Shown here: one piece after another, positions 11,758 to 28,298 of the stretch
Layout: every line of letters begins with the position of its first letter
Numbering within the stretch: the stretch's first letter is position 1
Assembly: GCA_022828085.1 (NCBI GenBank)
Contig: JAJEIY010000031.1
Span: 13,648 to 77,647, forward strand
Direction of reading: 5' to 3'
DNA length: 64,000 nt
Origin: Acidobacteriota bacterium
Lineage (GTDB): Bacteria > Acidobacteriota > Vicinamibacteria > Marinacidobacterales > Marinacidobacteraceae
Program-made: the position numbers and the translations under genes
The notes under the pieces: model-generated
What the model was told of the DNA's origin: nothing
The model's input: the letters and a program-made list of their open reading frames with translations, nothing else
Database searches by the model: none

Positions 11758-12479
11758 TTCTGGATCTGCTTTCGCGGGAGGGCCGGGAGGCGGCGCGGAT
11801 CCGGCGCGCCGCCAAGACGCTCACCGAGCGCTACGCGCAGCCGGAGCCCCGGATGGACGCCGCCGAGCGGCTCGTCCGCATCGGAACGCCCGAGGCGATC
11901 TACCAGCTTGCCCGGCGCTTCACCATCACCTCCGGAAACCTGGAACAGGACGACAAGGAAAAGCGCTGGGTCCGCGACCTCCTGGTCGAGCTGGAAGACC
12001 GCGCCTCCGAACCCGTCAAGCGCTACCTGAAGGGCCACGACGAGATCACCTGGGCGATGGACGCGCTCGCGAAGCTGCTGCCGGCCGGCGAGCTGGCCGC
12101 GTTCCTCTTCGAAGTTCTGCAGGACGGAGATCCGGTGGCGATCCGGGGGTCCAAGGCGGTCCAGATCCTCGACTTCCTTGCCGGGCTGGAGGCGGAAGAA
12201 GTCGCTGCCCCGGTGGCGCGCTGCCTCACGAGCAGCGACGACACGGTGCGGATCGCCGCGGTGGCGGCGCTCCGCGGCTACCGGGATCCGGACACCCGGG
12301 AACCGCTCCTCGAGGCCTTCGTCTCGGACGAAGAGGACTCCGTGCGGGTCCGGATCGCGATCGCGGAACTCTTCGCCGATCTGGAGTGGGAGATCCGCGG
12401 CCATCGTCCGGGGGTGGAGCGCGTCCTTCCCGATGGCTTCCGGGTCAGCTCCCGCGGCCGGATCGTCCGGGCCGGATAG
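11754..12479 (+). CDS. HEAT-repeat protein
   Basis: GTG overlaps the upstream stop; DDTVRIAAVAAL and EDSVRVRIAIAELF repeats. Confidence 0.7.
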   Translation: MILDLLSREGREAARIRRAAKTLTERYAQPEPRMDAAERLVRIGTPEAIYQLARRFTITSGNLEQDDKEKRWVRDLLVELEDRASEPVKRYLKGHDEITWAMDALAKLLPAGELAAFLFEVLQDGDPVAIRGSKAVQILDFLAGLEAEEVAAPVARCLTSSDDTVRIAAVAALRGYRDPDTREPLLEAFVSDEEDSVRVRIAIAELFADLEWEIRGHRPGVERVLPDGFRVSSRGRIVRAG

Positions 12480-12513
12480 TGGCGACGCGGGGCCGGCCTG
12501 ACGCCGCGCGCTG

Positions 12514-13950
12514 ATGGTCTCGGCCTCCACCGTTCTCGTCGTCCTCGGTTATCTCGCGGGGATCACCGCCTTCGGCATCTGGGTGGGCCGGCGGGACCGC
12601 TCGGTCACCGGTTTCTTCCTTGCCGGCCGCTCGGCGCCCTTCTGGGCGGTGGCCGCCTGCGTGGTGGCCACCGAAACCAGCGTCCTCACCTTCACGTCGA
12701 TTCCGGGGTTTGCCTACGAGGGCAACTTCGGGTTCCTCCAGTTGGCCATCGGGTTCCTGCTGGGCCGCGTGGGGATCGCGCTGGTGCTGCTCCCCGCCTA
12801 CTTCCGCGGCGAGGTGTTGACCACCTACGAACTGCTGCTGAAGCGGTTCGGCGCCCGCGTGCGGAGCGCCGCGGCGGCGATCTTCCTCGTGTACCGCAAC
12901 CTCGCCGACGGTGTCCGGCTGCACGCGGCGGCCCTCATGGTCGCGATCGTCGCCGGCGTTCCCGAGTGGTGGTGCATCGTGGCGCTCGCCGCCGCCATGG
13001 TGGCGTTCTCCGAAGAGGGCGGGGTCAAGGCCACCATCTGGACCGACGTCATTCAACTCGGCGTGTACCTCGTCGGGGCGGGGATCGTGGTCGCGGCGCT
13101 CTGGCAGGGGAGCGGCGCCGAGCCGCTCGACTGGATTCCCGCGGCGCGCGAGGCCGGCAAGTTCGACGTGGCGTTCCCCGCGTTCGACCTGACCATCCCC
13201 TACACCGTCTGGGCGGGCGTCATCGGCGGGTTCTTCCTCACCTTCGCGACCCACGGGGCGGACCAGTACCTGGCGCAGCGGCTGCTCGCGGCGCGTTCGC
13301 TTCGCCACGCCCAGGCGGGTCTCGTCCTCTCCGGCATCGGAGCGCTCTTCCAGTTCGTGCTCTTCCTGGGCATCGGCGCCTGGCTGTGGCACTACTACGG
13401 AGGGCGCGAGTTCGCCCGGCCCGACGAGGTGCTCCCGACCTTCGTCGCCGAGCACCTGTCGGGCGCCGCCGCCGGGATCACGCTCGCCGCGGTGGTGGCG
13501 GCCGCGCTCTCGCCGTCGCTGGTGAGTCTCGCCTCCACCACGGTGCGGGACTTCTGGCTGCCCTGGAAGCGGCGCCGGGCGGCGGCCGGCGCGGCCGCGG
13601 ACGACGAATCGGGACAGGTGCGGGTGGGGCGGCAGTTCGTCGTGGTGTGGGGCATCGTGCAGACCGCGGTGGCGCTCGTTGCGCAGCGGGCGCCGTCGGC
13701 GCTGGAGGCCGGGCTGTCGATCCTCTCCTACGCCTCCGGTCCCACCGTGGGCGCCTTTCTGCTCGCGGTCTTCTTCCCGCGGGCGCAGCCCAACGCGGTA
13801 CTGATCGGGATGGGCGGCGGGTTCGCCGCCCCGGCGCTGATCCGGCTGGCGGGATTCCCGCTTGCCTGGACCTGGGACGTTATGGTCGGCTCGCTCGCCA
13901 CTTTCGCGGTGGGCTGGCTCTTGAGCCGCTCCCGCACCACGGAGCCGTGA
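12514..13950 (+). CDS. Sodium:solute symporter (SSS) family protein
   Basis: FFLAGRS, ATETS, GGVKATIWTDVIQ, HGADQ..AQR motifs; multiple TM helices. Confidence 0.9.
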   Translation: MVSASTVLVVLGYLAGITAFGIWVGRRDRSVTGFFLAGRSAPFWAVAACVVATETSVLTFTSIPGFAYEGNFGFLQLAIGFLLGRVGIALVLLPAYFRGEVLTTYELLLKRFGARVRSAAAAIFLVYRNLADGVRLHAAALMVAIVAGVPEWWCIVALAAAMVAFSEEGGVKATIWTDVIQLGVYLVGAGIVVAALWQGSGAEPLDWIPAAREAGKFDVAFPAFDLTIPYTVWAGVIGGFFLTFATHGADQYLAQRLLAARSLRHAQAGLVLSGIGALFQFVLFLGIGAWLWHYYGGREFARPDEVLPTFVAEHLSGAAAGITLAAVVAAALSPSLVSLASTTVRDFWLPWKRRRAAAGAAADDESGQVRVGRQFVVVWGIVQTAVALVAQRAPSALEAGLSILSYASGPTVGAFLLAVFFPRAQPNAVLIGMGGGFAAPALIRLAGFPLAWTWDVMVGSLATFAVGWLLSRSRTTEP

Positions 13951-15482
13951 CCGACTACCGGACGATCCTCGCCGCCTTCCGCTCCTGGCGGACGCTCTCG
14001 GTCACCCTTCTCTCCTTCTCCTCGGGTATTCCCCTCGGCCTCGTCTGGTTCGCCATCCCGGACTGGATGCGGGACATCGGGGTGGACATCCGCATCGTCG
14101 GGCTCTTCAACCTGGCGCAGATCCCCTGGGCGTTCAAGATCCTCTGGTCGCCCTTCATGGACCGTTACGTCCCCGGTTTCTGGGGACGGCGGCGCGGCTG
14201 GATGGCGGTCACCCAGGTGGCGCTCCTGGCGCTCTGCATCCTGCTCGGGGGCGCCGGGGATCACCCCGACGCCATCTGGGTGGTGGCCGCGCTGGCGCTG
14301 GCGGTCGCGATCGCCTCGGCATCGCAGGACATCGTGGTGGACGCCTACGCGGTGGAGGTGCTGCGTCCCGAGGAGCACGGGGTGGCGGTGGGCGCCCGGG
14401 TGGCGCTCTACCGGGCGGCGATGGTGGTCGCCGGGGGCGGCGCGATCAGCGCGGCGGCTCTCTTCGGCTGGGGCGTGGTGAACGCGCTGCTGGGGCTGCT
14501 CTTCCTGCCGATGCTGCTTGTGACCTGGCGCGCCCCGGAGCCGGAGGAGCGCTTCGATCCGCCAAGCACGTTGCGGGACGCGGTGTGGAAGCCCTTCCTC
14601 GAGGCGCTGTCCCGGCCCCGGGCCTTCGAGATCTTCGCTTTCGTCTTCTTCTACAAGTTCGCCGACAACCTGGCCCAGTCGCTCACCCGGCCCTTCCTGA
14701 TCGACATGGGCTACGGGGCCGGACACCGGGGGATCGCGCTCGCCACCGTGGGAGCGGTGGTGACCATCGTCGGCACGTTCGCCGGCGGGCTCTTCACCAC
14801 CCTCGCCGGACTCGGACCGGCGCTCTGGGCGTTCGGCGTGCTCCAGATCTTCTCCAACCTCGGCTACTTCTTCGTCGCCGGCGCCGAGGGGAGCCTGGCG
14901 TGGATGTACGGCGCCTCGGCCTTCGAACTGTTCACGGGCGGCCTGGGCACGGGAGCGTTCTCGGTCCTCCTGCTGCGGATCACCGAGAAGCGCTTCTCCG
15001 CGACGCAGTACGCGCTCTTCTCCGGACTCTTTGCCCTGCCGCGCCTCCTCGCGGGTCCCTTCAGCGGCTTCGCGGTGGACGCGCTGGGCTGGCGGACGTT
15101 CTTCCTGTCCACCATGGCAATGGGGATTCCGGGACTGATCCTCCTCCATCGTTTCTCGCCCCTGGGGGTCCGGGATCCCAGGATCCGGCTCGGCGCGGGG
15201 GATGAGCCGGAGGCGCCCCGGCTCTCCACGGGGCTCGCCGGCCGTTTCGGCGTGTCCGCGCTTCTCGGTGGCGGGACGGTGTTCACCTTCGCCGTCCTGC
15301 TGGGGGCGCTGAAGGCGGCGCGCCTCGAACCCGAGGCCGGCTTCTCCCTCATGGCCGGGCTCCAGCCGATCGTGAACCCGGCGACCTTCGCGGACTGGGT
15401 TCAGGTGGGAGGAATCCTGGTGCTCGGGCTGATCTCGGGCCTCTTCGGCGCCGCTTTCGCGGCCGCGAGGCGGCGTACCTAG
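13947..15482 (+). CDS. ampG: AmpG-family muropeptide MFS transporter
   Basis: FSSGIPL, KILWSPFMDRY, GRRRGW, SASQDIVVDAY, YKFAD and FSATQYAL motifs. Confidence 0.88.
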   Translation: MTDYRTILAAFRSWRTLSVTLLSFSSGIPLGLVWFAIPDWMRDIGVDIRIVGLFNLAQIPWAFKILWSPFMDRYVPGFWGRRRGWMAVTQVALLALCILLGGAGDHPDAIWVVAALALAVAIASASQDIVVDAYAVEVLRPEEHGVAVGARVALYRAAMVVAGGGAISAAALFGWGVVNALLGLLFLPMLLVTWRAPEPEERFDPPSTLRDAVWKPFLEALSRPRAFEIFAFVFFYKFADNLAQSLTRPFLIDMGYGAGHRGIALATVGAVVTIVGTFAGGLFTTLAGLGPALWAFGVLQIFSNLGYFFVAGAEGSLAWMYGASAFELFTGGLGTGAFSVLLLRITEKRFSATQYALFSGLFALPRLLAGPFSGFAVDALGWRTFFLSTMAMGIPGLILLHRFSPLGVRDPRIRLGAGDEPEAPRLSTGLAGRFGVSALLGGGTVFTFAVLLGALKAARLEPEAGFSLMAGLQPIVNPATFADWVQVGGILVLGLISGLFGAAFAAARRRT

Positions 15483-15531
15483 TCCGCGGCGCCGCCGTGC
15501 CGCCAAGGGCGGCGGGCTAGATTCCCGGTAC

Positions 15532-17715
15532 ATGCACCGGGCGCGTTTCGCGGTAGCGGTCCTCCTTGTCCTGAGTTGCGCCGTGTCCGCGTCCGCCTTC
15601 ACCGGCAAGGTGGTTCTCCAGAGCGGCGAACCGGCGGCGGGGGCGATCGTCCAGATCCTGGGGCATCCGGGCTCGGCCGTAACGGACGGCCAGGGCCGGT
15701 TCGAGTGGCTGCCCGACCCGGCGCCCCCCTTCCACGTGCTGGTCGTGCTTCCCGGAGACCGGTACACCACGCCCGTCTTCGTCGAATCCGTCGACGCGGA
15801 AGAACTGCAGATCCGGGTGGAAGCCCTGGCTCTCCACGAGAGCGTCACGATCACGAGCGGCGCGGTGCCGCATACGGAAGCGACCCCGGGGAATGCTCCG
15901 GCCGTCATTGCCGGAGAGGCGATTCGCGTGCGGCAGGCGCCGCGGCTCACCGATGTGCTCGAAGCGGTGCCCGGAGGAAGCCGCGGGAGCGATCTGCACG
16001 CGGGCGCGCCCACGATCCGCGGGCTCTCCCGCGGAAGAACGGTGCTCCTCCTCGACGGGGCCCGGGTGACTTCGGAACGGCGGGCCGGCGCCAGCGCGTC
16101 CTTCCTGGACCCGTTCTTCCTCGAGACCGTGGAGGTGGTGCGCGGTCCCTCCTCGGTGTCGTACGGCTCCGACGCGTTCGGTGGAGTCATCCACGCCCGC
16201 ACGCGACGGCCGATACCGGGCGGTCCCGTTGGAGCGCGGGCTCGCGGAACCCTGGGAGCCGGGCTCCCGGAGGCCAGTTTCGGGGCGGAGGTCCAGGGGT
16301 CCGCTCTGGGCACCGGGTTCCTGGCCCAGGCGCGGCGGCGGGTCTTCTCCGAGTACTCGAGTCCCGAGGGCAAGGTCGAAGGCTCGGGCGCCGAGGACTA
16401 CGGGATGCTGCTCCGGGCCGCCAGAGGCCTGGGCGGAGGACATCTGGGAGTGGCCCTGCAATACGACGCGGGACGCAACGTCGGACGGCCGCGGCGGTCT
16501 TCGGCCACCACGTCCTATCCCGATGAAGACTCCCTCCGGCTGGTCACCGACTACCAGTTCGCGCCCCGCTGGGGGTTCGCGCGGCTGGATACCACGGCCT
16601 TCGTCGGTGCGCATCGGCTGGTCACCCGGCGGGAGGCGAACGGCGAAACGGCCGACTCCGAGGTTGCCGCGCACGACTTCATGTTGCGCGGGCGCGGTAT
16701 CCGGCCGTTCGGCGACGGCCGCCTCGAACTGGGAACCGAGTTTCTCAGCCGGTTCGGAATCTATTCGGAGACCCGGGGCGGACCGGACGATCCGGTTCTG
16801 AACGCCGCGGCGCGCCGTTCGGCGTTGGACGGCGCCCTGCGCCGGGAAGCGTCGGTGTACGGCCACGCCGAGACCCCGTTGGCGCCCCGGCTTGCCGGGA
16901 GCGCCGGAGCCCGCCTCTCCGCGGTGGCGACGCAGTCGGGCCTGGTCGACCGCCAGGAGCGCCAATCCACCAGTCACGGCGCTCTCAGCGGGTTTCTCGC
17001 GCTGCGCGCCGACCTTTGGCGCGGGGTGGCCCTGACCGGCCAGCTCTCCCGGGGCTTCCGTGACCCGACCCTCTCCGACCGCTACTACGCCGGCCTGAGC
17101 GGGCGCGGCATCGTGTTCGGGAATCCCGATCTGACTCCCGAACGGTCGCTCCAGTCGGACCTGTCGCTTCGTTACGACGGTGACGGGGTCCACGGCGGTT
17201 TCTACGCCTATCGCTACCGGATCTCCGACCTCATCGAGCGCCATGAGGAGGGAGAAGACCTGTACTTCTTCAGGAACCGGGGAGAGGCGACCCTTTCCGG
17301 CGTCGAGTTCGAGGTCCAGGTCGGAAACCCGAACGCCCCGTTCCTGCTGGATCTTTCGGCCGCCCTCACGCACGGTGTGGCCGACGGCGGCGCCGCTCTC
17401 GACGGAGTGCCTCCCGCCAACTTCCGGGCGGGCCTGCGCCGCCGCCTGCCGGCGCAGAGCTTCGCCGAGGTCGTTCTGCTGGCCTTCGCCGCGGACCGCG
17501 ACCCCGGACCGACCGAAGCCGCGTTGGACGCCTACGCGCGGCTCGATGCCGCCCTCGGGTTTCCCCTGAGCGGCGGCGCGGAACTGCGCTTCTCCGGCCG
17601 GAACCTCCTGAACGCCGCGTATCCCATCAGCGCCGATTCCCGCGCCGTCCTGGCTCCGGGACGGAGTCTCGTCGGCACGATCGTCTGGAACCTCGGAGCG
17701 TCGTCGGGGCCCTAG
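15532..17715 (+). CDS. TonB-dependent receptor with N-terminal carboxypeptidase-regulatory-like domain
   Basis: Signal peptide; plug IRGL...LLLDG, VEVVRGPSSVSYGSDAFGGVI; GNPDLTPE; RNLLN..Y...PGRS. Confidence 0.9.
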   Translation: MHRARFAVAVLLVLSCAVSASAFTGKVVLQSGEPAAGAIVQILGHPGSAVTDGQGRFEWLPDPAPPFHVLVVLPGDRYTTPVFVESVDAEELQIRVEALALHESVTITSGAVPHTEATPGNAPAVIAGEAIRVRQAPRLTDVLEAVPGGSRGSDLHAGAPTIRGLSRGRTVLLLDGARVTSERRAGASASFLDPFFLETVEVVRGPSSVSYGSDAFGGVIHARTRRPIPGGPVGARARGTLGAGLPEASFGAEVQGSALGTGFLAQARRRVFSEYSSPEGKVEGSGAEDYGMLLRAARGLGGGHLGVALQYDAGRNVGRPRRSSATTSYPDEDSLRLVTDYQFAPRWGFARLDTTAFVGAHRLVTRREANGETADSEVAAHDFMLRGRGIRPFGDGRLELGTEFLSRFGIYSETRGGPDDPVLNAAARRSALDGALRREASVYGHAETPLAPRLAGSAGARLSAVATQSGLVDRQERQSTSHGALSGFLALRADLWRGVALTGQLSRGFRDPTLSDRYYAGLSGRGIVFGNPDLTPERSLQSDLSLRYDGDGVHGGFYAYRYRISDLIERHEEGEDLYFFRNRGEATLSGVEFEVQVGNPNAPFLLDLSAALTHGVADGGAALDGVPPANFRAGLRRRLPAQSFAEVVLLAFAADRDPGPTEAALDAYARLDAALGFPLSGGAELRFSGRNLLNAAYPISADSRAVLAPGRSLVGTIVWNLGASSGP

Positions 17716-18174
17716 CAGCCCGTTGAAGCGACGGGACGGCGTATCCCGTCTGAACCGGGCCGCTGCGCTCCCATCGTCGCGTTTCGGCCGGAAACCAGCC
17801 GGTGTTCCGCCCCCATGCGGCTCGGCAGCCGGGCGCCTCGCCGCTCTTGGTGAGGCGCACCGCTTTCGGGACACCCGCACCAGTCCATGGTGACAGTTTC
17901 TGGAACATGCGGTGATCCACAAACGTAACGGTCAGCGAGCCTTCTACGCCAATCATTGGCCAAAACCGCGACAACCACCCATCGCCTGGTTATCGTCGCG
18001 TCGCTGACGCCGTTGACGATCGTACGTGACCGATTGTCATTACATTCATTACAGCCCGTTTTCGTAGACAGTCAAAGTATTGGGACCGATACGAGCTGGC
18101 GCCGCGCTGTGAAACAATCCAAGTACGTCGTACGCAGTAAGAAATCATCCTTTGGTTCGCATGCGGGTCTCGGT

Positions 18175-18210
18175 TGTCACCCGCGATACGTGACACATGA
18201 CACTGACACA
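18175..18210 (+). promoter_or_regulatory. TGACA repeat array (inverted plus direct), a putative operator upstream of the HTH gene
   Basis: TGTCAC-N9-GTGACA at 18175-18195; TGACAC at 18191, 18198 and 18204. Confidence 0.5.
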
Positions 18211-18236
18211 CATTACGTTGAGATGAGGAAGGGACG

Positions 18237-19934
18237 ATGAATCTCACAGTTTCCGAGTTGGCTCTTGCCGTAGGCAAACAGGAAAACTATGTGCGTCAAC
18301 ACATACACCGGCGCCACCTTTCGGTTCGCCGACAGGGCCGCACTGTCCGGGTTCCTCTGGACGAGGCGGTGAAGTGGGCGGGAACACGAGGACTTTCGTT
18401 TGTGCCGCCGAAGCGGATCAGCTTGACGTTGCTCGACCAGGGGGAAAGGATCGGGCGACTCACCGTCCTTGCCTGGCATCCCGAAGGCGGTTTGGCGCGG
18501 AACCTGTTCACGTTCATGCGTCATCGAAAACGCGACGCTCTGGGACCGTGGTCCACCGAACCGGATGCAACGTGGACCCTCGAGGAACTCGATGACGATC
18601 TGAGTCTGCTGTCCTTCAACGGCTCGTACGAGGAATGCCATGAGCACGTCGACAACATCCTTTCGTCGGGTGTACTCGAGGCGCACGAGCGGGAGATTCA
18701 CTACATCCTCGAAGACAACCCGAGGAACCACTGGGCCTACCGGGACTACCGGCGTCAGTCGGTGGGTTCGATACGGAGCCCGTTCGCCACCCACAGCGCA
18801 GCGATTACCGAGTACTGGAGTTTCGAAGACGGACCTCATCGACAGTGGTTGTCGCTGTCGGATCCGCTTGCGGGGCGATTGCGCTTGGCGCTTCGACGCC
18901 TTGGCTTTCCGCTCGACCGATGTCCGGAGCGCGTCGGCAACCTTCTGGTCGCTGCCGCCGAAGACGCGATCACGTGTCGACTCACCGCGCATCACGACCA
19001 GACGCTTCGACTTCATGTCGACGCCAAGGGACTTCTTCCCCAGACATATCGCGCGACCGTATGGGCGAGTCACAGCGGGGACGAGGTGCTTCGACGGGAG
19101 GTGCCGGTCATGCCGGGGCAGACCACGATCGAACTCGTTTCCGAAGTGGACCGTACAGGCTTCGCCATCTGCCGCGACTTCGACGGGCAGTACGTGGATC
19201 TGGTGGAGAACCTGCCTGGAATGGAGGCCGCCCATGCCGGGCGGTGGGGCGAGCAGCCGCTCCAGCGGGTCCGGGATCCAGTCGTGCGCGTTCCGCAGCG
19301 CGTCCACCCGTCCCGTCCGGCCGCCGCCTTTCCGGAACGCTTTCGGCGGACCGTCCGGCTCGATCGGGGTATCCGGCAGCAGTGGCTGCACCGCGTGGCG
19401 CACCAGAGGGAGGCCGGGGCCCGCCGCGACGCCAACCTGGTGCGTTTCGGCCCCGGCCGGTTCGCCGACGCGGCACGGCACTTCCTCTACCTCGTTTCCC
19501 ACGACTCCGGCCACCCGGGGCCGACCTATCTGGCCGACCCGTGCTTCGTCGGACACACGATGGCGGATGAAGTGGCCCAGCTCTTCATGGACGTGTGTGC
19601 CGCGATTCGGCGCCGGCCGCTGCGGATCCTGTGCGCGGAGCGGCCTCCAAGCGACGCTCCGGCGTGGTGGGCCCGCTACCTGCGAAAGGTCGACGCGAAC
19701 GTCACCGTGCGGACCTTCGTGAATCGCTCCGATGAGCGAGGGTGTTTTCACGACCGATACCTGATTACTCCCGTACGCGAGATCCTGATCACGAACTCGT
19801 TCAACGGATGGAATCGTTTCGGCGTGACCTTCGTGAGTCTTCCCTACGGGCTCTACCGTGCGGAAGCGGAGCAGTTGTGGGCCCTGGACCCCGACAACCC
19901 TGCTTCGGACGTCCTCGTCCGCGAGATTTCGTGA
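18237..19934 (+). CDS. HTH (excisionase/MerR-like) N-terminus plus VPA1262-like protein with a C-terminal PLD-like (HDR) domain
   Basis: LTVSELALAVGKQENYVRQHI...V.LDE (HTH); C-terminal YLADPCF, LRIL, FHDRYLI, ITNSFNG; GAGG RBS; lower GC. Confidence 0.6.
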   Translation: MNLTVSELALAVGKQENYVRQHIHRRHLSVRRQGRTVRVPLDEAVKWAGTRGLSFVPPKRISLTLLDQGERIGRLTVLAWHPEGGLARNLFTFMRHRKRDALGPWSTEPDATWTLEELDDDLSLLSFNGSYEECHEHVDNILSSGVLEAHEREIHYILEDNPRNHWAYRDYRRQSVGSIRSPFATHSAAITEYWSFEDGPHRQWLSLSDPLAGRLRLALRRLGFPLDRCPERVGNLLVAAAEDAITCRLTAHHDQTLRLHVDAKGLLPQTYRATVWASHSGDEVLRREVPVMPGQTTIELVSEVDRTGFAICRDFDGQYVDLVENLPGMEAAHAGRWGEQPLQRVRDPVVRVPQRVHPSRPAAAFPERFRRTVRLDRGIRQQWLHRVAHQREAGARRDANLVRFGPGRFADAARHFLYLVSHDSGHPGPTYLADPCFVGHTMADEVAQLFMDVCAAIRRRPLRILCAERPPSDAPAWWARYLRKVDANVTVRTFVNRSDERGCFHDRYLITPVREILITNSFNGWNRFGVTFVSLPYGLYRAEAEQLWALDPDNPASDVLVREIS

Positions 19935-22066
19935 TGCCGGTCAAACCGGGCGGCGCTTCCTCCCTGTCAGCGGCCGCCCGCGAGACCGTCTGGCGGATCT
20001 TTGGCGCCGGAGCTCAGCCGGGGGCCAAGGGCTCGGTTTTCGACAGGATCGAACCCATGATCCGGAAGCATGTGCCGTCCGCCGACCAGGACCGCGCCAT
20101 CGTAACGATCAGCGATTGGTTCGAATCGGGCGCTCACGTCAGGTGGTTGAATCCGGACCGCGCCGAGCTGGTCGCCGATCTGGTGATCGAGGGAGTCGGT
20201 TCGCGGCGCTCCGAAGAAGCGGTATGGGCGATCGGATCGATCGGAAGCGAACTGTCCGCCGCGATGATCAGGCGGCGTTGGGACGGGGAAGAGGTCCGCA
20301 CCCTCGTGGATGCGGCCGTCAGCGTGCTGAACCGGACCGAGGCTCGCGTGCGGCACGAGGATCGTGCAGCTGGGCTGGAGGAGGAGGCGGGCAACTTCGA
20401 GGGAGTCGTATCCCGGGACGGGATCGTGACCGCCTTCGCGCGGCTCGAAGAAGAGAGCCTCGAGCTGGTGAATCAGGGATTGCATCCGACGGTGGCCAAT
20501 CTGATCGATCTCGCGGTCGAGCTCTTCCCCGAACAGGCTCCCGTGCTGGTCTCCAGGCTGGAGGCGCCGACCATGCAGGCCAGGGCGGCCCGACGCATGG
20601 TGGCCCGAACGCCGCCGGGCGATCCCGGCGCGATCGTGGGATGGATCACGGAGGACGCCGCCGATACGGCCGTCGCGCTGGCCATCGTGCACGTGCTGGG
20701 TGCGGCGAGGAAACTGGACGACAGCCAGTCCCCGCGAAAAGACCCTTCGCCCTCGGGGAAGGCGAGCCCCGGGCAGGCGCCGGAACGTCCCCCGGACGAC
20801 GCCGGAAAGCTGGTTCTTCAACTCCTGGGGCGCCTGGCGAACCTGGATTCACCGGATTGCCTGCGGTGGATCGGCGAGGTCCTGAATCAGGCTCCGCGGG
20901 CGCTGTCGTTGCCGGACGGCGGACAAAAGCCAAAGCTCCTGGCCCACCTCGAGCACGAGTGCACGAGACTGGCGGTGAGCCGCTTCCGCGAGCCGGGGTC
21001 CGCGCCCCTGCTCCCGCACTTCCAGGTGGGGCTCCTGCCCGGCCGGGGAAGGCACTGGGTGCGCCACCAGATGGCGATTGCCCGGGCGATGCGTACTTCG
21101 GCGCCGGGACGAGCGGAGGAACTCGCGCGAGCCACCCTGGACGAACATCGGCGACAGTTGGCGGAACAGCAGGATGGCCGTTACCTGGCCCCCGACTGGG
21201 ACTCCTGGAGCGATCGGGAATGGCTCGAAGGCCTGGGAACGGCGCTGGCCCTGGGCCGCAAGGATCTGGATCTCCGCGCCTGGGTCGCCAACGAGTGCCG
21301 GGACCTGCCGCTGAGCGTCTGGGACGCCGAGGAGGATCCCGATGGATTCGCGATGGCGGAACAGATTGCGCAGCACTGGTTCCTCGTCGCGCTCCTCGCG
21401 ATTCCGCAGCGGGAAGAGTTCGGCCGACCCTTCGAGCCGCCCGTGGTGCGCGCCCTCGCCGAGGCTGTCTGGGCTCACTGCAGATTCTGCCGGCCGCATC
21501 TCCAGACGCATCCGGAAGCGTCGGTCGCCGCCGAGCTGGCGGCCCGTTACGCGATGCGGAGCGGGCGGGACAACGACCAGTGGCTGCTCGACCAGGCCCG
21601 CGGCGAAGGCCTGGGTCCCGGAGCTCTCCGCGTCCTGCTGGAAGAGCGGCGATCCCGGGGCCGTCGGCCGGCCGGGGGCATTTCCGACGTTGACGACGTG
21701 ATCGTGGCGGAACTCGTGCGGATCGCACTGGACCGGTTCGATGATGGTGGCCAGTTCGACCTGGACGGCCTTCGCGACTGGGGAAGGCTCTGGCTCCTGA
21801 TCGGCGCGGTGGACCCGGCGGAGAGGACGGCGATGGCCATTGTCAGTTTCCCTTTGCGCGGCGCGGACAGGCACTCGCGGATCCTGGCGCTCAAGCTCCT
21901 CGGACTGGTTGTTCGCCACCGCAAACCACGTCCCGGCGTGGCCGAGTACGTGGTACCGCTCTACAACCAGCTCTGGCCAGTGTTCGCCGTCACCCCGAAC
22001 CAGGAAAGGGAAGACCGCGAGGAAATCGAGAAGGCCTTCCTGGGCTCGGACCTCATCGCCGGGTAG
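19934..22066 (+). CDS. Large hypothetical protein (710 aa, predicted mostly alpha-helical)
   Basis: ATG overlaps the upstream TGA (TGATG); long ORF; no recognisable catalytic motif. Confidence 0.7.
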   Translation: MPVKPGGASSLSAAARETVWRIFGAGAQPGAKGSVFDRIEPMIRKHVPSADQDRAIVTISDWFESGAHVRWLNPDRAELVADLVIEGVGSRRSEEAVWAIGSIGSELSAAMIRRRWDGEEVRTLVDAAVSVLNRTEARVRHEDRAAGLEEEAGNFEGVVSRDGIVTAFARLEEESLELVNQGLHPTVANLIDLAVELFPEQAPVLVSRLEAPTMQARAARRMVARTPPGDPGAIVGWITEDAADTAVALAIVHVLGAARKLDDSQSPRKDPSPSGKASPGQAPERPPDDAGKLVLQLLGRLANLDSPDCLRWIGEVLNQAPRALSLPDGGQKPKLLAHLEHECTRLAVSRFREPGSAPLLPHFQVGLLPGRGRHWVRHQMAIARAMRTSAPGRAEELARATLDEHRRQLAEQQDGRYLAPDWDSWSDREWLEGLGTALALGRKDLDLRAWVANECRDLPLSVWDAEEDPDGFAMAEQIAQHWFLVALLAIPQREEFGRPFEPPVVRALAEAVWAHCRFCRPHLQTHPEASVAAELAARYAMRSGRDNDQWLLDQARGEGLGPGALRVLLEERRSRGRRPAGGISDVDDVIVAELVRIALDRFDDGGQFDLDGLRDWGRLWLLIGAVDPAERTAMAIVSFPLRGADRHSRILALKLLGLVVRHRKPRPGVAEYVVPLYNQLWPVFAVTPNQEREDREEIEKAFLGSDLIAG

Positions 22067-22205
22067 AGTTGGACCTCGGGTCCTCCCGTGACCCTGGCAG
22101 GGAGATACTCCCGCCCTCGACCCGTGCCCCGGCGCGCCGTGGGATGCGAACATCCTGCGCGGCGCCGTCCGCCGCCTCCCAACGGTGGTTCGCGCGACCC
22201 GCACC

Positions 22206-22820
22206 ATGACGAAACCCACGGACGAACACACCGCCCACCAGGAACGGATGCGGGCGCTCCAGGCGGAGGTCCGGGAGAAGCGCGCCGCGGCCAGCGACCC
22301 GGGACGCGGCCTGGTGCTGGTCCACACCGGGGACGGGAAGGGCAAGTCCAGTTCCGCCTTCGGGGTCATCGCGCGAGGGCTCGGCTGGGGATGGAAGGTC
22401 GCCGTGGTGCAGTTCATCAAGGGTGAGTGGAAAACCGGCGAGCGCCAGTTCTTCGAGCGCTTTCCGGACCGGGTCGTCTGGCGCACCATGGGCGAAGGGT
22501 TCACCTGGGACACCCAGGACCGCGCCCGGGACATCGAAGTGGCGGCTGGCGCGCTCGCCGTCGCCCGGGGGATGCTGGCGTCCGGAGACTTCGACCTGGT
22601 CGTCCTCGATGAAATCAACGTCGTGATGAGCTACGACTATCTGGAAGCCGGGGCGGTGCTGGAAGCGCTTCAGGCGCGCGCAGCCTCGACGAGCGTGATC
22701 CTGACGGGCCGCGGCGCCCGCGGCGAAGTGATCGATTACGCCGATCTCGTCACCGAGATGCGCGAGGTGAAACACCCGTTCACCGCCGGAGTCAAGGCCC
22801 AGCGCGGCCTCGACTATTGA
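22206..22820 (+). CDS. cobO: Cob(I)yrinic acid a,c-diamide adenosyltransferase (CobO/BtuR)
   Basis: HTGDGKGKSS, VVQFIKG, GEGFTW, LVVLDE, ILTGR, ADLVTEMREVKHPF..G.KAQRGLDY. Confidence 0.95.
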   Translation: MTKPTDEHTAHQERMRALQAEVREKRAAASDPGRGLVLVHTGDGKGKSSSAFGVIARGLGWGWKVAVVQFIKGEWKTGERQFFERFPDRVVWRTMGEGFTWDTQDRARDIEVAAGALAVARGMLASGDFDLVVLDEINVVMSYDYLEAGAVLEALQARAASTSVILTGRGARGEVIDYADLVTEMREVKHPFTAGVKAQRGLDY

Positions 22821-22928
22821 GATCCGGCGGGCGGGAACGCCGCGCAGGGCCGGCTGAAGCCGGCCTTCCAGGCGGTCCCCGCCACCCTGGGCCTCAGCGT
22901 CTAGCCTTCGGGCGACAACGGGAAAGAA

Positions 22929-24493
<1,565 letters not shown>

Positions 24494-24494
<1 letters not shown>

Positions 24495-24517
24495 TGCCGG
24501 CCGGAGGCCGGCGCTCG
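24494..24517. repeat. Single REP-like hairpin
   Basis: Reverse complement GAGC-GCCGGCCT-CC-GGCCGGC-AT, between convergent genes. Confidence 0.55.
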
Positions 24518-24532
24518 GCGCCGGCGCGCCCC

Positions 24533-25786
24533 TTACGCGACGATCAGCGGACGCAGCGCCTTCAGGCCCGCCAGCGCCCGCTCCACGTGCTCCGCGGTGT
24601 TGTACAGGTGCGGTGACAGCCGGAAACCGCCGGAAGTCGAGCCGGCGATGCCGTGCTCGTCGTACATCCGGGAGAACACCTCGCGGCGGGACTCGGCCGG
24701 CACCTCCACGATGACGACGCCCGCCGAGAGGGCGTCGTCGATCGGGGTCACCAGCGGGATGCCCGCTTCCGTGAGGCCCTTCTTGAGGCGGCCCGCCAGG
24801 TCGTACATCCGTTTCTCGACCCGCTCCGCGCCGATCTCGGCGTGGAACTCGGCGGTGGTGCCCATCGCCGCGAGACAGGCGTCGTCGCGCTGTCCCATGG
24901 ATTCGAACTTCCGGGCCCCGCTCGGGTCCGGGTCGGCGTCGCCGCCCCAGCCGGGGGCCACCTCGGAGGGCCAGAGCTTCGGAATGGTCTCGGTGCGGAC
25001 CACCAGCACGCCGCACTCCTTGGGTCCGCAGAACCACTTGTGGGAACTGCTCGTGAAGGTGTCGGCGCCGATCGCGGGCACGTCCACCGACAGCCCGCCG
25101 AAGCTCTGGGCTCCGTCCACGTGGACGTGGATGCCGCGTTCGTGCGCGGCGTCCGCGATCCGGCGCACCGGCAGGTGAATGCCGGAGACGTTCGAGACGT
25201 GGGTGATCGCAATCACCTTCGTGTTCGCGCCCAGCGCCTCGATGAAGGGAGCGGCGAGATCGTCCGCCGCCGCCGGCGCTTTCGGCGCCGACACCCGCCG
25301 GACCGTGAAGCCGTAGCGGGCCGCGCGGACGTCCCACGCGACGTTGTTCGTGGGATGGTTCTGGTCCCAGAGGACGACCTCGTCGCCCTCTCCGAGAACC
25401 AGGCCGGCGTTCACGATGTTGTTCGCCTCGCTGGTGTTTCGCACGAGGGCCAGTTCGTCGGCCGTGACTCCGAGCTGCGCCGCCACCTCCTCCCGCGCCG
25501 ACTCCCGCAGGTCCCCGAACTTCCCCCGGTTCTGGAACGAGCAGTCGTGGTCGATGTCGCGGGTCAGCTCGCTCACCCGGTCCGCCACCGACCGGGGCGA
25601 GGGACAGAGGTTGGCCGCGTTCATGGGCACCTTGTCCTCTTCGAAGGGGAACTCCCACCGCACCATCCGGAACAGCGCCTCGTCGTCGGCGGCGACGGCC
25701 CGGAGGGCCGGGAAAGCCGCCGGAACGGCGGCCGTGGTGCGCAGGAACGAGCGCCGGGTAACGGCATTCGAGAGGGACTTCGTCAT
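24533..25786 (-). CDS. Class V PLP-dependent aminotransferase (cysteine desulfurase/isopenicillin N epimerase-like) with Tat signal
   Basis: TRRSFLR Tat motif; RNTSE, HVDGAQS, SSHKWFCGP (PLP lysine), RLSPHLYN. Confidence 0.88.
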   Translation of the reverse strand: MTKSLSNAVTRRSFLRTTAAVPAAFPALRAVAADDEALFRMVRWEFPFEEDKVPMNAANLCPSPRSVADRVSELTRDIDHDCSFQNRGKFGDLRESAREEVAAQLGVTADELALVRNTSEANNIVNAGLVLGEGDEVVLWDQNHPTNNVAWDVRAARYGFTVRRVSAPKAPAAADDLAAPFIEALGANTKVIAITHVSNVSGIHLPVRRIADAAHERGIHVHVDGAQSFGGLSVDVPAIGADTFTSSSHKWFCGPKECGVLVVRTETIPKLWPSEVAPGWGGDADPDPSGARKFESMGQRDDACLAAMGTTAEFHAEIGAERVEKRMYDLAGRLKKGLTEAGIPLVTPIDDALSAGVVIVEVPAESRREVFSRMYDEHGIAGSTSGGFRLSPHLYNTAEHVERALAGLKALRPLIVA

Positions 25787-25812
25787 GGCGGGCGCCTCCG
25801 AGGTCAGCGAGT

Positions 25813-27000
25813 CTAGCGGGTTCCCGGCGGCGAGGCCGAGACGAGGTCCCCGGGCCGCCGGGCGCTGCCGTGGGTGATGACCGAGCGGAACAGAACCGGA
25901 CAGATCAGCGAAGTGACCGCGGCGATCATCACCGCGATCGCCCGGTCGGTCTCGTCGAGAAGCCCGAGTTCGAGCCCCACGGTGGCGACGGCGATCACGA
26001 GGCTCAGCCGGGCGGAGAGCAGGAATCCGGTCGCGGCGGCCGCCCTGAGCGAGAAGCCCCAGAACACGAACAGCAGGGCCGGCAGGAACTTGACGAGGAA
26101 CGCCACGCCGATGATGACTCCGGCGCGCGCGAGCGCTTCGGGGTTCAGGAGGGCCCCCACCTCGAAACGAAGGCCGACGTTGATGAAGAAGATGGGGATC
26201 AGGAAGCCCCAGGAGATCCCCGAGAGCTGGTGGCGAAGCCCCTCGGGCGGATGGAAGAGCAGCGCGAAGACGCCTCCGGCGAGGAACGCGGCCAGGATCG
26301 GCTCCACGTCGAGCACGGTCGAAAGCCCCACGAAGATGAGCAGCAGTGCGAGGGCGCCGCGAATCCCCATCTCGTCGGGGTCGTCCTTGCGGAACAGCCG
26401 GGACACGCGGAGCGGGTGCCACCAGAGCACCAGCTTCATCACCCGCAGCACCACCACGACCGCGACCAGCAGCAGCGGCCCGTTGATGAGCTCGATCCCC
26501 CAGCCGTCCCTCGCCCAGATGGTGATCTCGGCGACCAGCAGCAGGGTCACCAGGTCGGCGATCACCGCCGAGACCAGGATCGCCTGTCCGAGGCTCTCGG
26601 TGGTGATCCCGGCGCTCCTCAGACTCGGCAGCACGAGGGCGGCCGAGGTGGTGGCGAGCAGCGGGGCGTAGAAGACCGGCAGCTCCAGCCACACCGTGGC
26701 CAGGAAGGAGAGCGCGAAGGTGCCGGCGAAGACGACGAGCGCCTGCCCGATGGGCCCCGCGCCGCCCCGCCGCAGGGCCCGGAAGTCGATCTCGAAACCG
26801 GCGAGGAACATCAGCATGAGGAGCCCGAGGGTCCCGATCTGATCCAGCAGCTCGGTGCCCTGCACCAGTCCGAAGACCGGGCCGATCAGGACCCCGAAGA
26901 GAATCTCGACGACCACCGCGGGCGCGCGCAGCCAGGAGGCGACCGGGGGCAGCAGGAAGGCGGCGATCCCGACGATCACCAGCGCGCCGGAGCCGTCCAT
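25813..27000 (-). CDS. Cation:proton antiporter (CPA2 family)
   Basis: LMFLAGFEID, ILAAFLAG, PIFFINVGL; about 12 TM helices. Confidence 0.88.
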   Translation of the reverse strand: MDGSGALVIVGIAAFLLPPVASWLRAPAVVVEILFGVLIGPVFGLVQGTELLDQIGTLGLLMLMFLAGFEIDFRALRRGGAGPIGQALVVFAGTFALSFLATVWLELPVFYAPLLATTSAALVLPSLRSAGITTESLGQAILVSAVIADLVTLLLVAEITIWARDGWGIELINGPLLLVAVVVVLRVMKLVLWWHPLRVSRLFRKDDPDEMGIRGALALLLIFVGLSTVLDVEPILAAFLAGGVFALLFHPPEGLRHQLSGISWGFLIPIFFINVGLRFEVGALLNPEALARAGVIIGVAFLVKFLPALLFVFWGFSLRAAAATGFLLSARLSLVIAVATVGLELGLLDETDRAIAVMIAAVTSLICPVLFRSVITHGSARRPGDLVSASPPGTR

Positions 27001-28298
27001 CAGCGGGTCCCCAACACCGCGGCCGCGGCCAGCGCCAGCGCTCCGGTGGAGTGCACCAGCTCGTCGACCGGGCAGTGCTCGCCGGGCCGGTGCGCCAGTT
27101 CGAGAATCCCCGGCCCGTAGGCGACGCAGTCCGGGACTCCGGCGACCCGGGCGACGTGTTTGTGGTCGTAGGTGCCGGGGCTCGCCACCTCCTCGACCTC
27201 GGCGCCGAGGGCGCCCCGCACCCCGTATCGCACCGCCTCGGTGGCGAGGGACCCGGCCGGCGTCCGCACCGGCTCGACCGTGAGCAGTTCTTCGACCCGG
27301 TAGCGCCGGCCGGGTTCGCGGTCCGCGCACGCCCGGACCCGGTGAGCCACCTCTTCCCGGACGGCCTCGAGTCCCTCTTCGGGCAGGAACCGGCGGTCCA
27401 CCACCAGTTCGGCCCGGTCGGGAACCTGGGGACTCTCGGTTCCGGCGCCCGCCTGTCCGCCCCGGATGCTGTTCACGTTGACCGTCGCCACGCGGGCCCC
27501 CTCGGGGACCACGGGAAGGGCGGTGCGGCGGGCGGCCAGTTCCGGGACCCATTCGTTCCGGATTTCTTCGAGAAGGGGCGCCAGGTCGGCGATGGCGTTC
27601 CGGCCCAGGAACGGCATGCTGCCGTGGGCCACCTCACCTTCGGCGACGACCCGGAACCAGTACACCCCGCGGTGTCCCACGCACACCCGGCGTGAGCCGA
27701 AGGGTTCGGGAATGATCACGGCGTCGGTGTCGCGGGCGATCTGTCCCGACTCGGCCAGCCAGGCGACGCCGGCGTGTCCCCCGGTCTCCTCGTCCGCGGT
27801 CCCCGAAATCTCCAGAGTGCCGCCGAGCCGGGCGCCCGCCCGCTGGAGGACGATCGCGGCGAAGAACGCCGCCGCGACGCCCCCTTTCATGTCGCTCGCC
27901 CCGCGGCCCCAGACGGCGCCGTCGCGCACTGCGCCCGAGAACGGGTCCGTGGTCCAGCCGGAGCCCGCGGGGACCACGTCGAGGTGTCCGTTCAGGTGGA
28001 GCCGCCGGCCGCCCCCTCCAAGCGGACTCTCCAGCCGGCCGATGACGTTTCGCCGGGGATACGCGGCGGAGCCGGGTGGGCAGGCGTCCGCCGGAGGGTC
28101 GTCGAACGTCACCTCGAAACCGGCGGCCGCGAGCCGGTCCCCGAGGAGAGCGGCGCACTCGCGGTAGTTCTCGCCCGGGGGATTCACGGTCGGGATCCGG
28201 ATCAGCTCCCCGCAGAACGCGGCGATCTCCGCTCGGGCCGCTTCCGCCTGGCGAAGGATCCGCGCCTCGAGGCGGGCGGCGACCGGATGGAGCGGCAT
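27000..28298 (-). CDS. ArgE/DapE-family (M20) deacylase
   Basis: NGHLDVVP, GRGASDMKGG, ADEETGG, GHRG, AYGPG...AH; start 28298 preceded by TATCCT-N8. Confidence 0.9.
   Translation of the reverse strand: MPLHPVAARLEARILRQAEAARAEIAAFCGELIRIPTVNPPGENYRECAALLGDRLAAAGFEVTFDDPPADACPPGSAAYPRRNVIGRLESPLGGGGRRLHLNGHLDVVPAGSGWTTDPFSGAVRDGAVWGRGASDMKGGVAAAFFAAIVLQRAGARLGGTLEISGTADEETGGHAGVAWLAESGQIARDTDAVIIPEPFGSRRVCVGHRGVYWFRVVAEGEVAHGSMPFLGRNAIADLAPLLEEIRNEWVPELAARRTALPVVPEGARVATVNVNSIRGGQAGAGTESPQVPDRAELVVDRRFLPEEGLEAVREEVAHRVRACADREPGRRYRVEELLTVEPVRTPAGSLATEAVRYGVRGALGAEVEEVASPGTYDHKHVARVAGVPDCVAYGPGILELAHRPGEHCPVDELVHSTGALALAAAAVLGTR

Follow-up and report, generated by a model that had tools for sequence, protein, structure and literature searches.

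We read, with moderate confidence, a pair of coupled genes at positions 18,237 to 22,066 of a 64,000-nucleotide (nt) stretch of Acidobacteriota DNA (contig JAJEIY010000031.1 of assembly GCA_022828085.1; hereafter, the window) as an autoregulated, self-contained, mobile two-gene cassette directed against phages or other mobile DNA. The cassette would be related to the Juno/VPA1262 family and would combine a helix-turn-helix (HTH)-bearing effector of the phospholipase D (PLD) type, with an HxR motif, and a solenoid partner. This reading draws on sequence comparisons: homology of the first gene to a validated defense family, strict coupling of the pair, spread across phyla, a defense-island context outside the window's genus, purifying selection, and repeats carried by the cassette all argue for it. 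The core features are as follows.

Gene 1, 18237..19934, plus strand: open reading frame (ORF) with a translation of 565 amino acids (aa), HTH-bearing, similar to the VPA1262 N-terminal domain, with a predicted C-terminal PLD fold.
Gene 2, 19934..22066, plus strand: 710 aa, predicted all-alpha solenoid partner.
TGATG stop/start overlap, 19932..19936, plus strand: translational coupling, the ATG of gene 2 overlapping the TGA of gene 1.

The initial annotation, made from the letters alone, had described a two-gene insert between a TonB receptor gene and cobO, a gene 1 C terminus with the motifs DPCF, RIL, FHDRYLI, and SFNG, and a gene 2 that starts on the stop codon of gene 1. All of this holds in the sequence, and the expectation that the two genes would occur together elsewhere was borne out as well. 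A scan of a genome collection returned 43 loci (cited here as L004, etc.), one per species-level genome, and gene 2 lies directly 3' of gene 1 in 42/42 testable loci; the 43rd, L040, was left out because its contig ends inside gene 1. The junctions overlap in 41 of the 42, with a 1-nt stop/start overlap (TGATG, TAATG, or TAGTG) in 38. The others are a 4-nt overlap in two loci, an 8-nt overlap in one, and an 81-nt gap in L026, whose gene 1 also contains stop codons. A search for a third gene common to the loci found none.

One protein of 1,236 aa (P0226) joins the two head to tail, its residues 7-570 corresponding to gene 1 (46% identity) and 573-1187 to gene 2 (36%), with a C-terminal end that diverges beyond residue ~1187. 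P0226 could be a true fusion or the product of a lost stop codon or of an assembly or frameshift error; as a single sequence on a single contig, it may be an artifact. Searching with the short gene 1 relative P0350 found no further fused or longer forms. A complex prediction for gene 1 residues 370-565 with full-length gene 2 scored 0.00 in two uncontrolled runs, which weighs neither for nor against association of the two.

Gene 1 has 450 relatives at an E value of ≤0.001 among 8,000 candidates scored, nearly all of 560-585 aa, and gene 2 has 107 at the same threshold, nearly all of about 700-730 aa; as displayed, the source names of both sets are all "hypothetical protein." An exhaustive HMMER pass over 1.84 billion representatives retrieved only 130 gene 1 clusters, many of them fragments, and no bridge from gene 1 to a named family. 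No Pfam, NCBIfam, or PADLOC model is reached by either window protein. Their sole matches are on gene 1 residues 3-46, to the excisionase model TIGR01764 (17.9 bits versus 28.8 needed) and to HTH_17 (16.4 bits versus 27 needed), both below the curated thresholds. In our gene 1 family alignment of 58 diverse members, HTH_17 matches 34 and TIGR01764 matches 28 at an E value of ≤1, with a best value of 1.5e-07. An AlphaFold2 (AF2) model built on the same 58 sequences, with a predicted local distance difference test score (pLDDT) of 81.9, resolves the following parts.

Excisionase/MerR-type winged helix (HTH_17-like), 18237..18392, plus strand: gene 1 residues 1-52.
Beta-rich core with the motif S181-P-F183 ... 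E192-Y-W-S-F, 18441..18926, plus strand: gene 1 residues ~69-230.
Immunoglobulin-like beta-sandwich, 18957..19229, plus strand: gene 1 residues 241-331.
PLD-fold domain with the variant motif H505-D-R507 ... S521-x-N523, 19416..19931, plus strand: gene 1 residues 394-565.
Codon of H505, 19749-19751, plus strand.

The predicted structure of the N terminus has the Xis-type winged-helix fold. A linker of low confidence (residues 327-368) leads into a long helix. For the beta-rich region ~69-230 no structural match was reported, though it was hardly probed, as matches to the other domains crowd the lists. This region belongs to the stretch with homology to the N-terminal domain of VPA1262, and the alignments to that domain's model span it. 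The ESM Atlas gave only leads for gene 1 (0.81) and no usable match for gene 2. As an observation apart, a protein of 4,040 aa (P0309) contains 16 repeated segments similar to residues 89-138 of gene 1 (E value of 1.8e-17, 30% identity), a hint that this beta-hairpin occurs elsewhere as a repeat unit as well.

A PLD-like C terminus for gene 1, proposed earlier from motifs, is supported by the predicted structure, which adopts the PLD fold. The window protein reads ADPCF at 433-437, FHDRY at 504-508, and SFN at 521-523, the HKD-type region running H505-D-R507-Y-L-I-T-P-V-R-E-I-L-I-T-N-S521-F-N523-G. Residues S181, F183, E192, Y431, D434, H505, R507, and W548 are invariant in the 58-member alignment, and F504, D506, T519, S521, G524, and W525 are conserved in ≥90% of the members. 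The canonical motif of the superfamily is HxK(x)4D(x)6GSxN; gene 1 departs from it by an Arg for the Lys, the lack of an Asp at +7, and an S-x-N at +16/+18. In the AF2 model, H505-D-R507 precedes a strand at 507-510, followed by a turn, a strand at 515-518, and S521-x-N523 at the opening of a helix at 522-528, and in the model this placement is the register of HxK ... GSxN known from HKD enzymes. Alignments to two-domain PLD enzymes span one domain's worth of sequence, at most about 165 residues; each chain would thus carry a single predicted PLD domain and would need to pair to form a canonical active site. One gene 1 member touches the NucT model (E value of 0.043).

The VPA1262 family has been renamed Juno and presented as a single-gene anti-phage system in a recent preprint, in whose available passages its function is said to have been previously unknown, protection against phage is shown for two canonical members only, the survey covers Gram-negative genera, and no mechanism is proposed (bioRxiv 10.64898/2026.08.01.741415). 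In the portion of an earlier study at hand, vpa1262 appears merely as the boundary of the vpa1254-vpa1262 region replaced within GMT island VPaI-6 (10.1101/2023.03.28.534373). Two NCBIfam models cover the family: NF040699 for full-length VPA1262 (cutoff, 325 bits) and NF040700 for its N-terminal domain (cutoff, 80 bits). The N-terminal model matches 46/58 gene 1 members with a best E value of 5.8e-14, and the matches are colinear, extending up to profile positions 5-451 of 478. The full-length model matches 6/58 with a best E value of 0.0013, below its 325-bit cutoff. Three bona fide VPA1262 proteins (1,108, 988, and 1,115 aa) served as controls, of which P0360 (1,108 aa) and the protein of L057 (988 aa) scored 397 and 636 bits with NF040699. 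A profile comparison with hhalign between the gene 1 family and these three canonical proteins gave an E value of 6.9e-05 over 254 columns, pairing gene 1 residues 172-439 with canonical residues about 130-411.

The canonical proteins bear QDP[FY] ... LHDRY ... LSNS motifs, and the ordered series DP[YF]F ... HDR[YW] ... SxN, a family definition that is our own reading of the alignment and not a published one, is found in the window gene 1, in canonical members, and in relatives that lack the HTH; two short ones of the latter, P0349 and P0350 (about 490-500 aa), carry the same motifs. The initial link to VPA1262 thus stands as remote homology and falls short of membership: gene 1 is a remote homologue of VPA1262/Juno that fails the curated cutoffs. 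A single polypeptide of ~1,000 aa with a C-terminal extension of ~480 aa is not what the locus encodes, as gene 1 has 565 aa and ends after the PLD domain. Canonical VPA1262 itself is scarce in our samples, with 0/401 genomes from the class of genome G002, 1/401 in a Bacteroidota-centered set, 2/401 in the order of that one genome, and only 4 metagenome loci.

Gene 2 shows no recognizable family or catalytic motif in Pfam, NCBIfam, and PADLOC scans; it has a conserved acidic loop, LPLSVWDAEED, at 458-468. Canonical Juno proteins continue for about 480 residues beyond the PLD-type motif, and the idea that the pair is a split Juno, with gene 2 as the C-terminal half, is unsupported: hhalign gave E values of 0.77 against one canonical protein and 0.76 against three, and 47 gene 2 relatives scanned against NCBIfam had no relevant match and none to NF040699. 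This test is a weak one, being a sequence comparison only with a canonical profile of just three sequences, and it is insensitive with a single canonical sequence, since gene 1 failed there too.

Upstream DNA that may serve as promoter and operator would add a third component to the pair. Within the window, the features upstream of gene 1 are these.

Conserved box 1, candidate promoter/operator, 18013..18054, plus strand: columns invariant or nearly so in 10 same-genus sequences.
Conserved box 2, 18191..18217, plus strand: TGACAC three times in tandem (18191, 18198, 18204), then TTACG (18213-18217).
Shine-Dalgarno-like AGGAAGGGA, 18226..18234, plus strand: precedes the ATG of gene 1.

Box 1 holds a TTGAC -35-like element, TGAC-N5-GTCA (18027-18039), and TTACA half-sites at 18040-18044 and 18049-18053; box 2 has the genus-conserved columns GTGACA..TGA....TGACA. 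The GAGATGAGGA region upstream of gene 1 is kept across the genus. A sigma-70 promoter scan of the window found 0 sites. Box 1 matches in position the TTGACA box and TGTAAWTTACA repeats that precede gene 1 in other phyla; there, the 150-250 nt ahead of the gene typically contain a TTGACA box and, after it, two to three copies near TGTAAWTTACA. With up to two mismatches, this palindrome lies within 250 nt upstream in 20/25 loci outside the genus versus 12/963 control windows (random 250-nt windows from the same loci), and with up to one mismatch in 13/25 versus 2/959. The count omits five loci whose gene 1 alignment does not start at residue 1; three of them (L028, L034, and L043) are N-terminally truncated or frameshifted. 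The palindrome is found in 0/13 loci of the window's genus, which have their own conserved boxes instead. The HTH recognition region (R20, Q21, H22, R25, H27, and L28) is invariant in 32 sequences. The HTH would bind these cassette-borne repeats and autoregulate the operon, to judge from sequence. The module was initially taken for the DNA-binding arm of a nuclease; its winged-helix fold is upheld by the predicted structure, and autoregulation is the more likely role for it than nuclease targeting.

The 43 loci, all from metagenome-assembled genomes, span about ten phyla and include Acidobacteriota, Latescibacterota, Nitrospirota, Gemmatimonadota, Bacteroidota, Gammaproteobacteria, Nitrospinota, Spirochaetia, Chloroflexota, and Binatia; a Dadabacteria record is among the gene 1 protein matches. 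A plasmid collection yielded no match for P0350 or gene 2. Among 301 sampled genomes of the window's class, gene 1 is present in 13/15 other genomes of the genus, in 0/12 genomes of other genera of the same family, and in 2/43 genomes of one other family at about 50% identity. The locus is fixed in the window's own genus, which qualifies the initial interpretation. Both genes are under purifying selection within the genus, with dN/dS relative to the window copy of 0.12-0.22 for gene 1 and 0.22-0.30 for gene 2 (dS up to about 1.2).

In the 13 same-genus loci the pair occupies one site, between the TonB receptor gene and cobO. Orthologues of the flanking MFS and cobO genes are likewise missing from the two same-genus genomes without it; the region was probably not assembled in either, and neither can serve as an empty site. 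The MFS and receptor genes are present in three complete sister-genus genomes. In two of these (G405 and G444), the receptor gene is followed, directly so in G405, by a homologue of the window ORF at 24533-26692, with neither pair nor cobO; this arrangement is an empty site. The simplest history is a single acquisition at the base of the genus and retention under selection, with independent acquisitions elsewhere. Another genome of the genus, G540, holds two gene 1 copies (C199:3173-4867 and C71:3868-5565; 80% and 43% identity to that of the window), a sign either of a second cassette that was acquired separately or of contamination in a bin that is 66% complete.

Public runs with near-identical DNA are mostly labeled sponge metagenome and represent only the window's own lineage. 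With the possible source study excluded, runs containing this DNA at shares of 0.37-0.63 come from 10 further studies labeled sponge, coral, marine, or coded organisms. Several of the other metagenome-assembled series in the locus set may also be sponge derived. Sponges and corals are named among the habitats of Gemmatimonadota in the part of a published account available to us (PMC10469786).

Outside the genus, the flanks (144 ORFs scanned) vary from locus to locus and are rich in defense and mobility genes, which upholds the proposed defense-island location for these loci. Restriction-modification (RM) is represented by type I systems, with the pair just 3' of hsdS in L013 and L017 (in L017, an hsdR gene lies still further downstream), and by MmeI-type (L023, L034, and L035), type ISP (L037), and EcoRI methylase (L022) genes. 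Abortive-infection or effector genes encode AbiEi/AbiEii (L014, L016, L019, and L042) and CAP12-type TIR proteins (L014 and L016), and AAA_21/AAA_15 ATPases occur in L019, L037, and L040. Toxin-antitoxin and related neighbors include ParE/Phd, HigB, BrnA, PIN, Fic, and DUF4411 with an M78 peptidase (L025). Tyrosine integrases (L022, L026, and L032), a serine recombinase (L033), and transposases (L015, L020, L034, and L043) make up the mobility genes. The canonical Juno gene retrieved here likewise adjoins AbiEi-like and MobB/BfmA mobilization genes. Four loci, one of Gemmatimonadota and three of Latescibacterota (L014, L016, L019, and L028), have a common upstream block of radical SAM/SPASM, metallophosphatase, and AbiEi/AbiEii genes adjoining the pair; its occurrence in two phyla suggests cross-phylum transfer of a larger island. 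An ORF of ~950 aa without a Pfam match also lies near the pair in three loci of two phyla. Inside the genus, one locus (L004) has two defense genes just past cobO, so the cobO site accepts such genes.

hsdS, L013:7285-8907 and L017:8142-9821: Nitrospirota; product fused to a nucleotidyltransferase domain.
hsdR, L017:16470-19661: downstream of the pair.
589-aa ORF with no assigned family, L017:14172-15941: downstream of the pair.
~950-aa ORFs, L025:16566-19406, L033:5556-8411, and L041:15150-18005.
Complete MmeI-family type IIL RM gene, L004:15776-18652, minus strand: same genus, just past cobO.
ApeA-N-domain gene, L004:19075-20637, plus strand: same genus, just past cobO.

Under the defense reading, the cassette could work as follows. 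The Xis-type winged helix of gene 1 would bind the repeats that overlap the cassette promoter and hold expression low, and the observed stop/start overlap would yield both proteins in a fixed proportion. The two may work as one complex, because they are strictly adjacent and fused in one natural protein. The alpha-solenoid partner would sense an infection cue or restrain the enzyme. The PLD-type domain probably pairs with another copy of itself, in the manner of the single-HKD nucleases Nuc, NucT, and Zucchini; His505, with Arg507 and Ser521/Asn523, would then attack a phosphodiester bond in nucleic acid, which would stop the phage or the infected cell. We infer complex formation, catalysis, substrate, and defense phenotype alike.

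A number of observations weigh against this reading. Both frames are intact in 37/42 loci, and one gene is broken in the other five (gene 1 in L026, L028, L034, and L043; gene 2 in L006). Scanned singly, 12 gene 1 members score 15.8-51.7 bits with NF040700, all below 80, and the window gene 1 matches neither NF040699 nor NF040700 even at an E value of ≤1. PADLOC-DB v2.0.0 (2023), which predates Juno, finds 0 families at an E value of ≤1 for either protein. Sequence comparison detects no similarity between gene 2 and the C-terminal half of Juno, so that the Juno analogy is limited to gene 1. An Arg stands in place of the catalytic Lys in the HKD motif, and PDB profile searches with full-length and C-terminal profiles did not reach solved PLD enzymes, giving only chance-level matches. 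Pfam PLDc_2 (PF13091) is touched by 3/58 members, with a best E value of 0.0037, and does not match the window gene 1, its gathering threshold remaining out of reach. The non-enzymatic PLD-fold proteins TrmB, TrmBL2, FAM83, and MITD1 are also among the structure matches. The site is fixed within the genus (13/15 other genomes, over dS values of up to about 1.2), steadier than is typical of defense genes, and the neighbors there are mainly cobalamin related (cobO, CobU, and FecCD/ABC) rather than a defense island, so that the proposed island location does not extend to the window's own genus.

This long retention at one site, together with the tight translational coupling, the 1:1 pairing, and an autoregulation-like palindrome that travels with the cassette, would also suit an addiction or selfish module of the toxin-antitoxin kind, with a PLD-type toxin, a solenoid neutralizer, and an HTH autorepressor; such a module would persist because its loss kills the cell, whether or not it also helps against phages; toxin-antitoxin pairs, moreover, often adjoin the genes. 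We regard such a module as unlikely, given that the two proteins greatly exceed the usual toxin-antitoxin components in size and that the nearest characterized relative acts, according to the available passages of the preprint, as an anti-phage protein. Addiction and defense roles are compatible, because many abortive-infection systems are toxin-antitoxin-like. Less probable still is a non-catalytic regulator resembling TrmB/TrmBL2, that is, a DNA-binding or chromatin-type protein with a ligand-binding PLD-like domain, with gene 2 as a helical-repeat partner and a possible tie to life in an animal host. TrmBL2 is the top Foldseek match of gene 1, at low TM-scores (0.17-0.19 on the query). However, the flanking genes differ from phylum to phylum, so that nothing but the pair itself is consistently available for regulation; His, Arg, Ser, and Asn are invariant or nearly so at the catalytic positions of PLD enzymes, and the homologous Juno family, in those same passages, protects against phage.

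The Xis-like N terminus, the spread over about ten phyla, the integrases or transposases that adjoin several loci, and the inclusion of the DNA cutters BfiI and SauUSI in the PLD fold also invite the view that the pair is the core machinery of an unrecognized mobile element, in which an Xis-like binder, a PLD-type nuclease or strand-transferase, and an accessory protein move the cassette. This view appears quite improbable, as the window shows no convincing direct or inverted repeats at the ends of the pair, no recombinase regularly accompanies it, and it is static at one chromosomal site across the genus. A bolder form of the anti-phage reading, which we hold to be possible though doubtful, is that of a distinct three-part immune module of operator, HTH-PLD(HxR) effector, and alpha-solenoid sensor, the last standing in for the C-terminal half of Juno without descending from it. 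Such a module would pass in one piece between unrelated bacteria with a common animal-associated (sponge/coral) habitat, and the solenoid would recognize a phage protein and release a metal-independent HxR-type phosphodiesterase. If true, phage-protein sensing by the solenoid would be a logic undescribed for Juno or other PLD-based defenses.

In the window itself, the pair interrupts an apparent cobalamin uptake/salvage neighborhood of a TonB-dependent receptor gene and cobO, to which relatives add CobU and FecCD/ABC transport genes.

TonB-dependent receptor gene, 15532-17715: upstream of the pair.
cobO, 22185-22820: downstream of the pair.
Cobalamin-neighborhood spans in relatives: L009:16866-20108, L010:15548-17485, and L024:15528-17480.

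The GC content is 0.56-0.61 at 18000-18999 (upstream spacer and start of gene 1) and 0.65-0.70 over the remainder of the pair, versus about 0.70-0.73 on both flanks. No Rfam family was found in window positions 10000-28000, and hence no cobalamin riboswitch was called; terminator-like sites in the window scan show no excess over shuffles. Long overlapping ORFs on both strands are frequent in this 70% GC window (e.g., 12966-15482 and 13728-16373). In an 838-aa frame at 12966, the MFS transporter is confined to the last ~540 residues; lists of ORFs made mechanically thus overstate gene lengths in the window.

The kind of system at hand (Juno/VPA1262, PLD-type defense) has been known since August 2026, and the early label of "undescribed" no longer fits the kind. 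It still fits the form: the literature on VPA1262 and on PLD-type defense in sponge symbionts yielded no description of a two-gene, HTH-bearing version, the homologue lists of the preprint lying outside this scope. What sets it apart is the HTH, the obligate solenoid partner, and the operator-like DNA. Across phyla, the two genes travel together with regulatory DNA of their own, and the Juno-like core reaches at least ten phyla, mostly known from metagenomes, beyond the genera surveyed in the available part of the preprint. If active, the pair would add a two-gene family to defense catalogues that now miss it, having neither a PADLOC nor an NCBIfam call.

Among known proteins, TrmB and TrmBL2 resemble gene 1 in that a single chain carries a winged helix at the N terminus and a PLD-like domain at the C terminus. 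They have about 260-340 aa, have no beta-rich or immunoglobulin-like middle, and no longer contain the catalytic His motif. The single-HKD nucleases (Nuc, NucT, Zucchini/PLD6, and the nuclease domains of BfiI, SauUSI, and NgoAVII) have H-x-K, whereas gene 1 has H-D-R, lacks the Asp at +7, and has a spacing to S-x-N one residue longer; gene 1 has no significant sequence match to solved single-HKD members. Juno is the closest in kind. The gene 1 core (about residues 70-520) is homologous to and colinear with the VPA1262 N-terminal domain, and both systems are rare, patchy, horizontally spread, and found beside defense and mobility genes. In contrast, Juno is one protein of about 990-1,115 aa that, in the passages cited above, protects alone; here, a 565-aa protein is followed by a separate gene for a 710-aa solenoid, and the pair adds an N-terminal Xis-type HTH and its own upstream palindromes. 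The pair thereby offers a natural dissection of a Juno-type system, with the PLD-type core and the partner on separate proteins, so that the roles of enzyme and of sensor or regulator can be tested separately.

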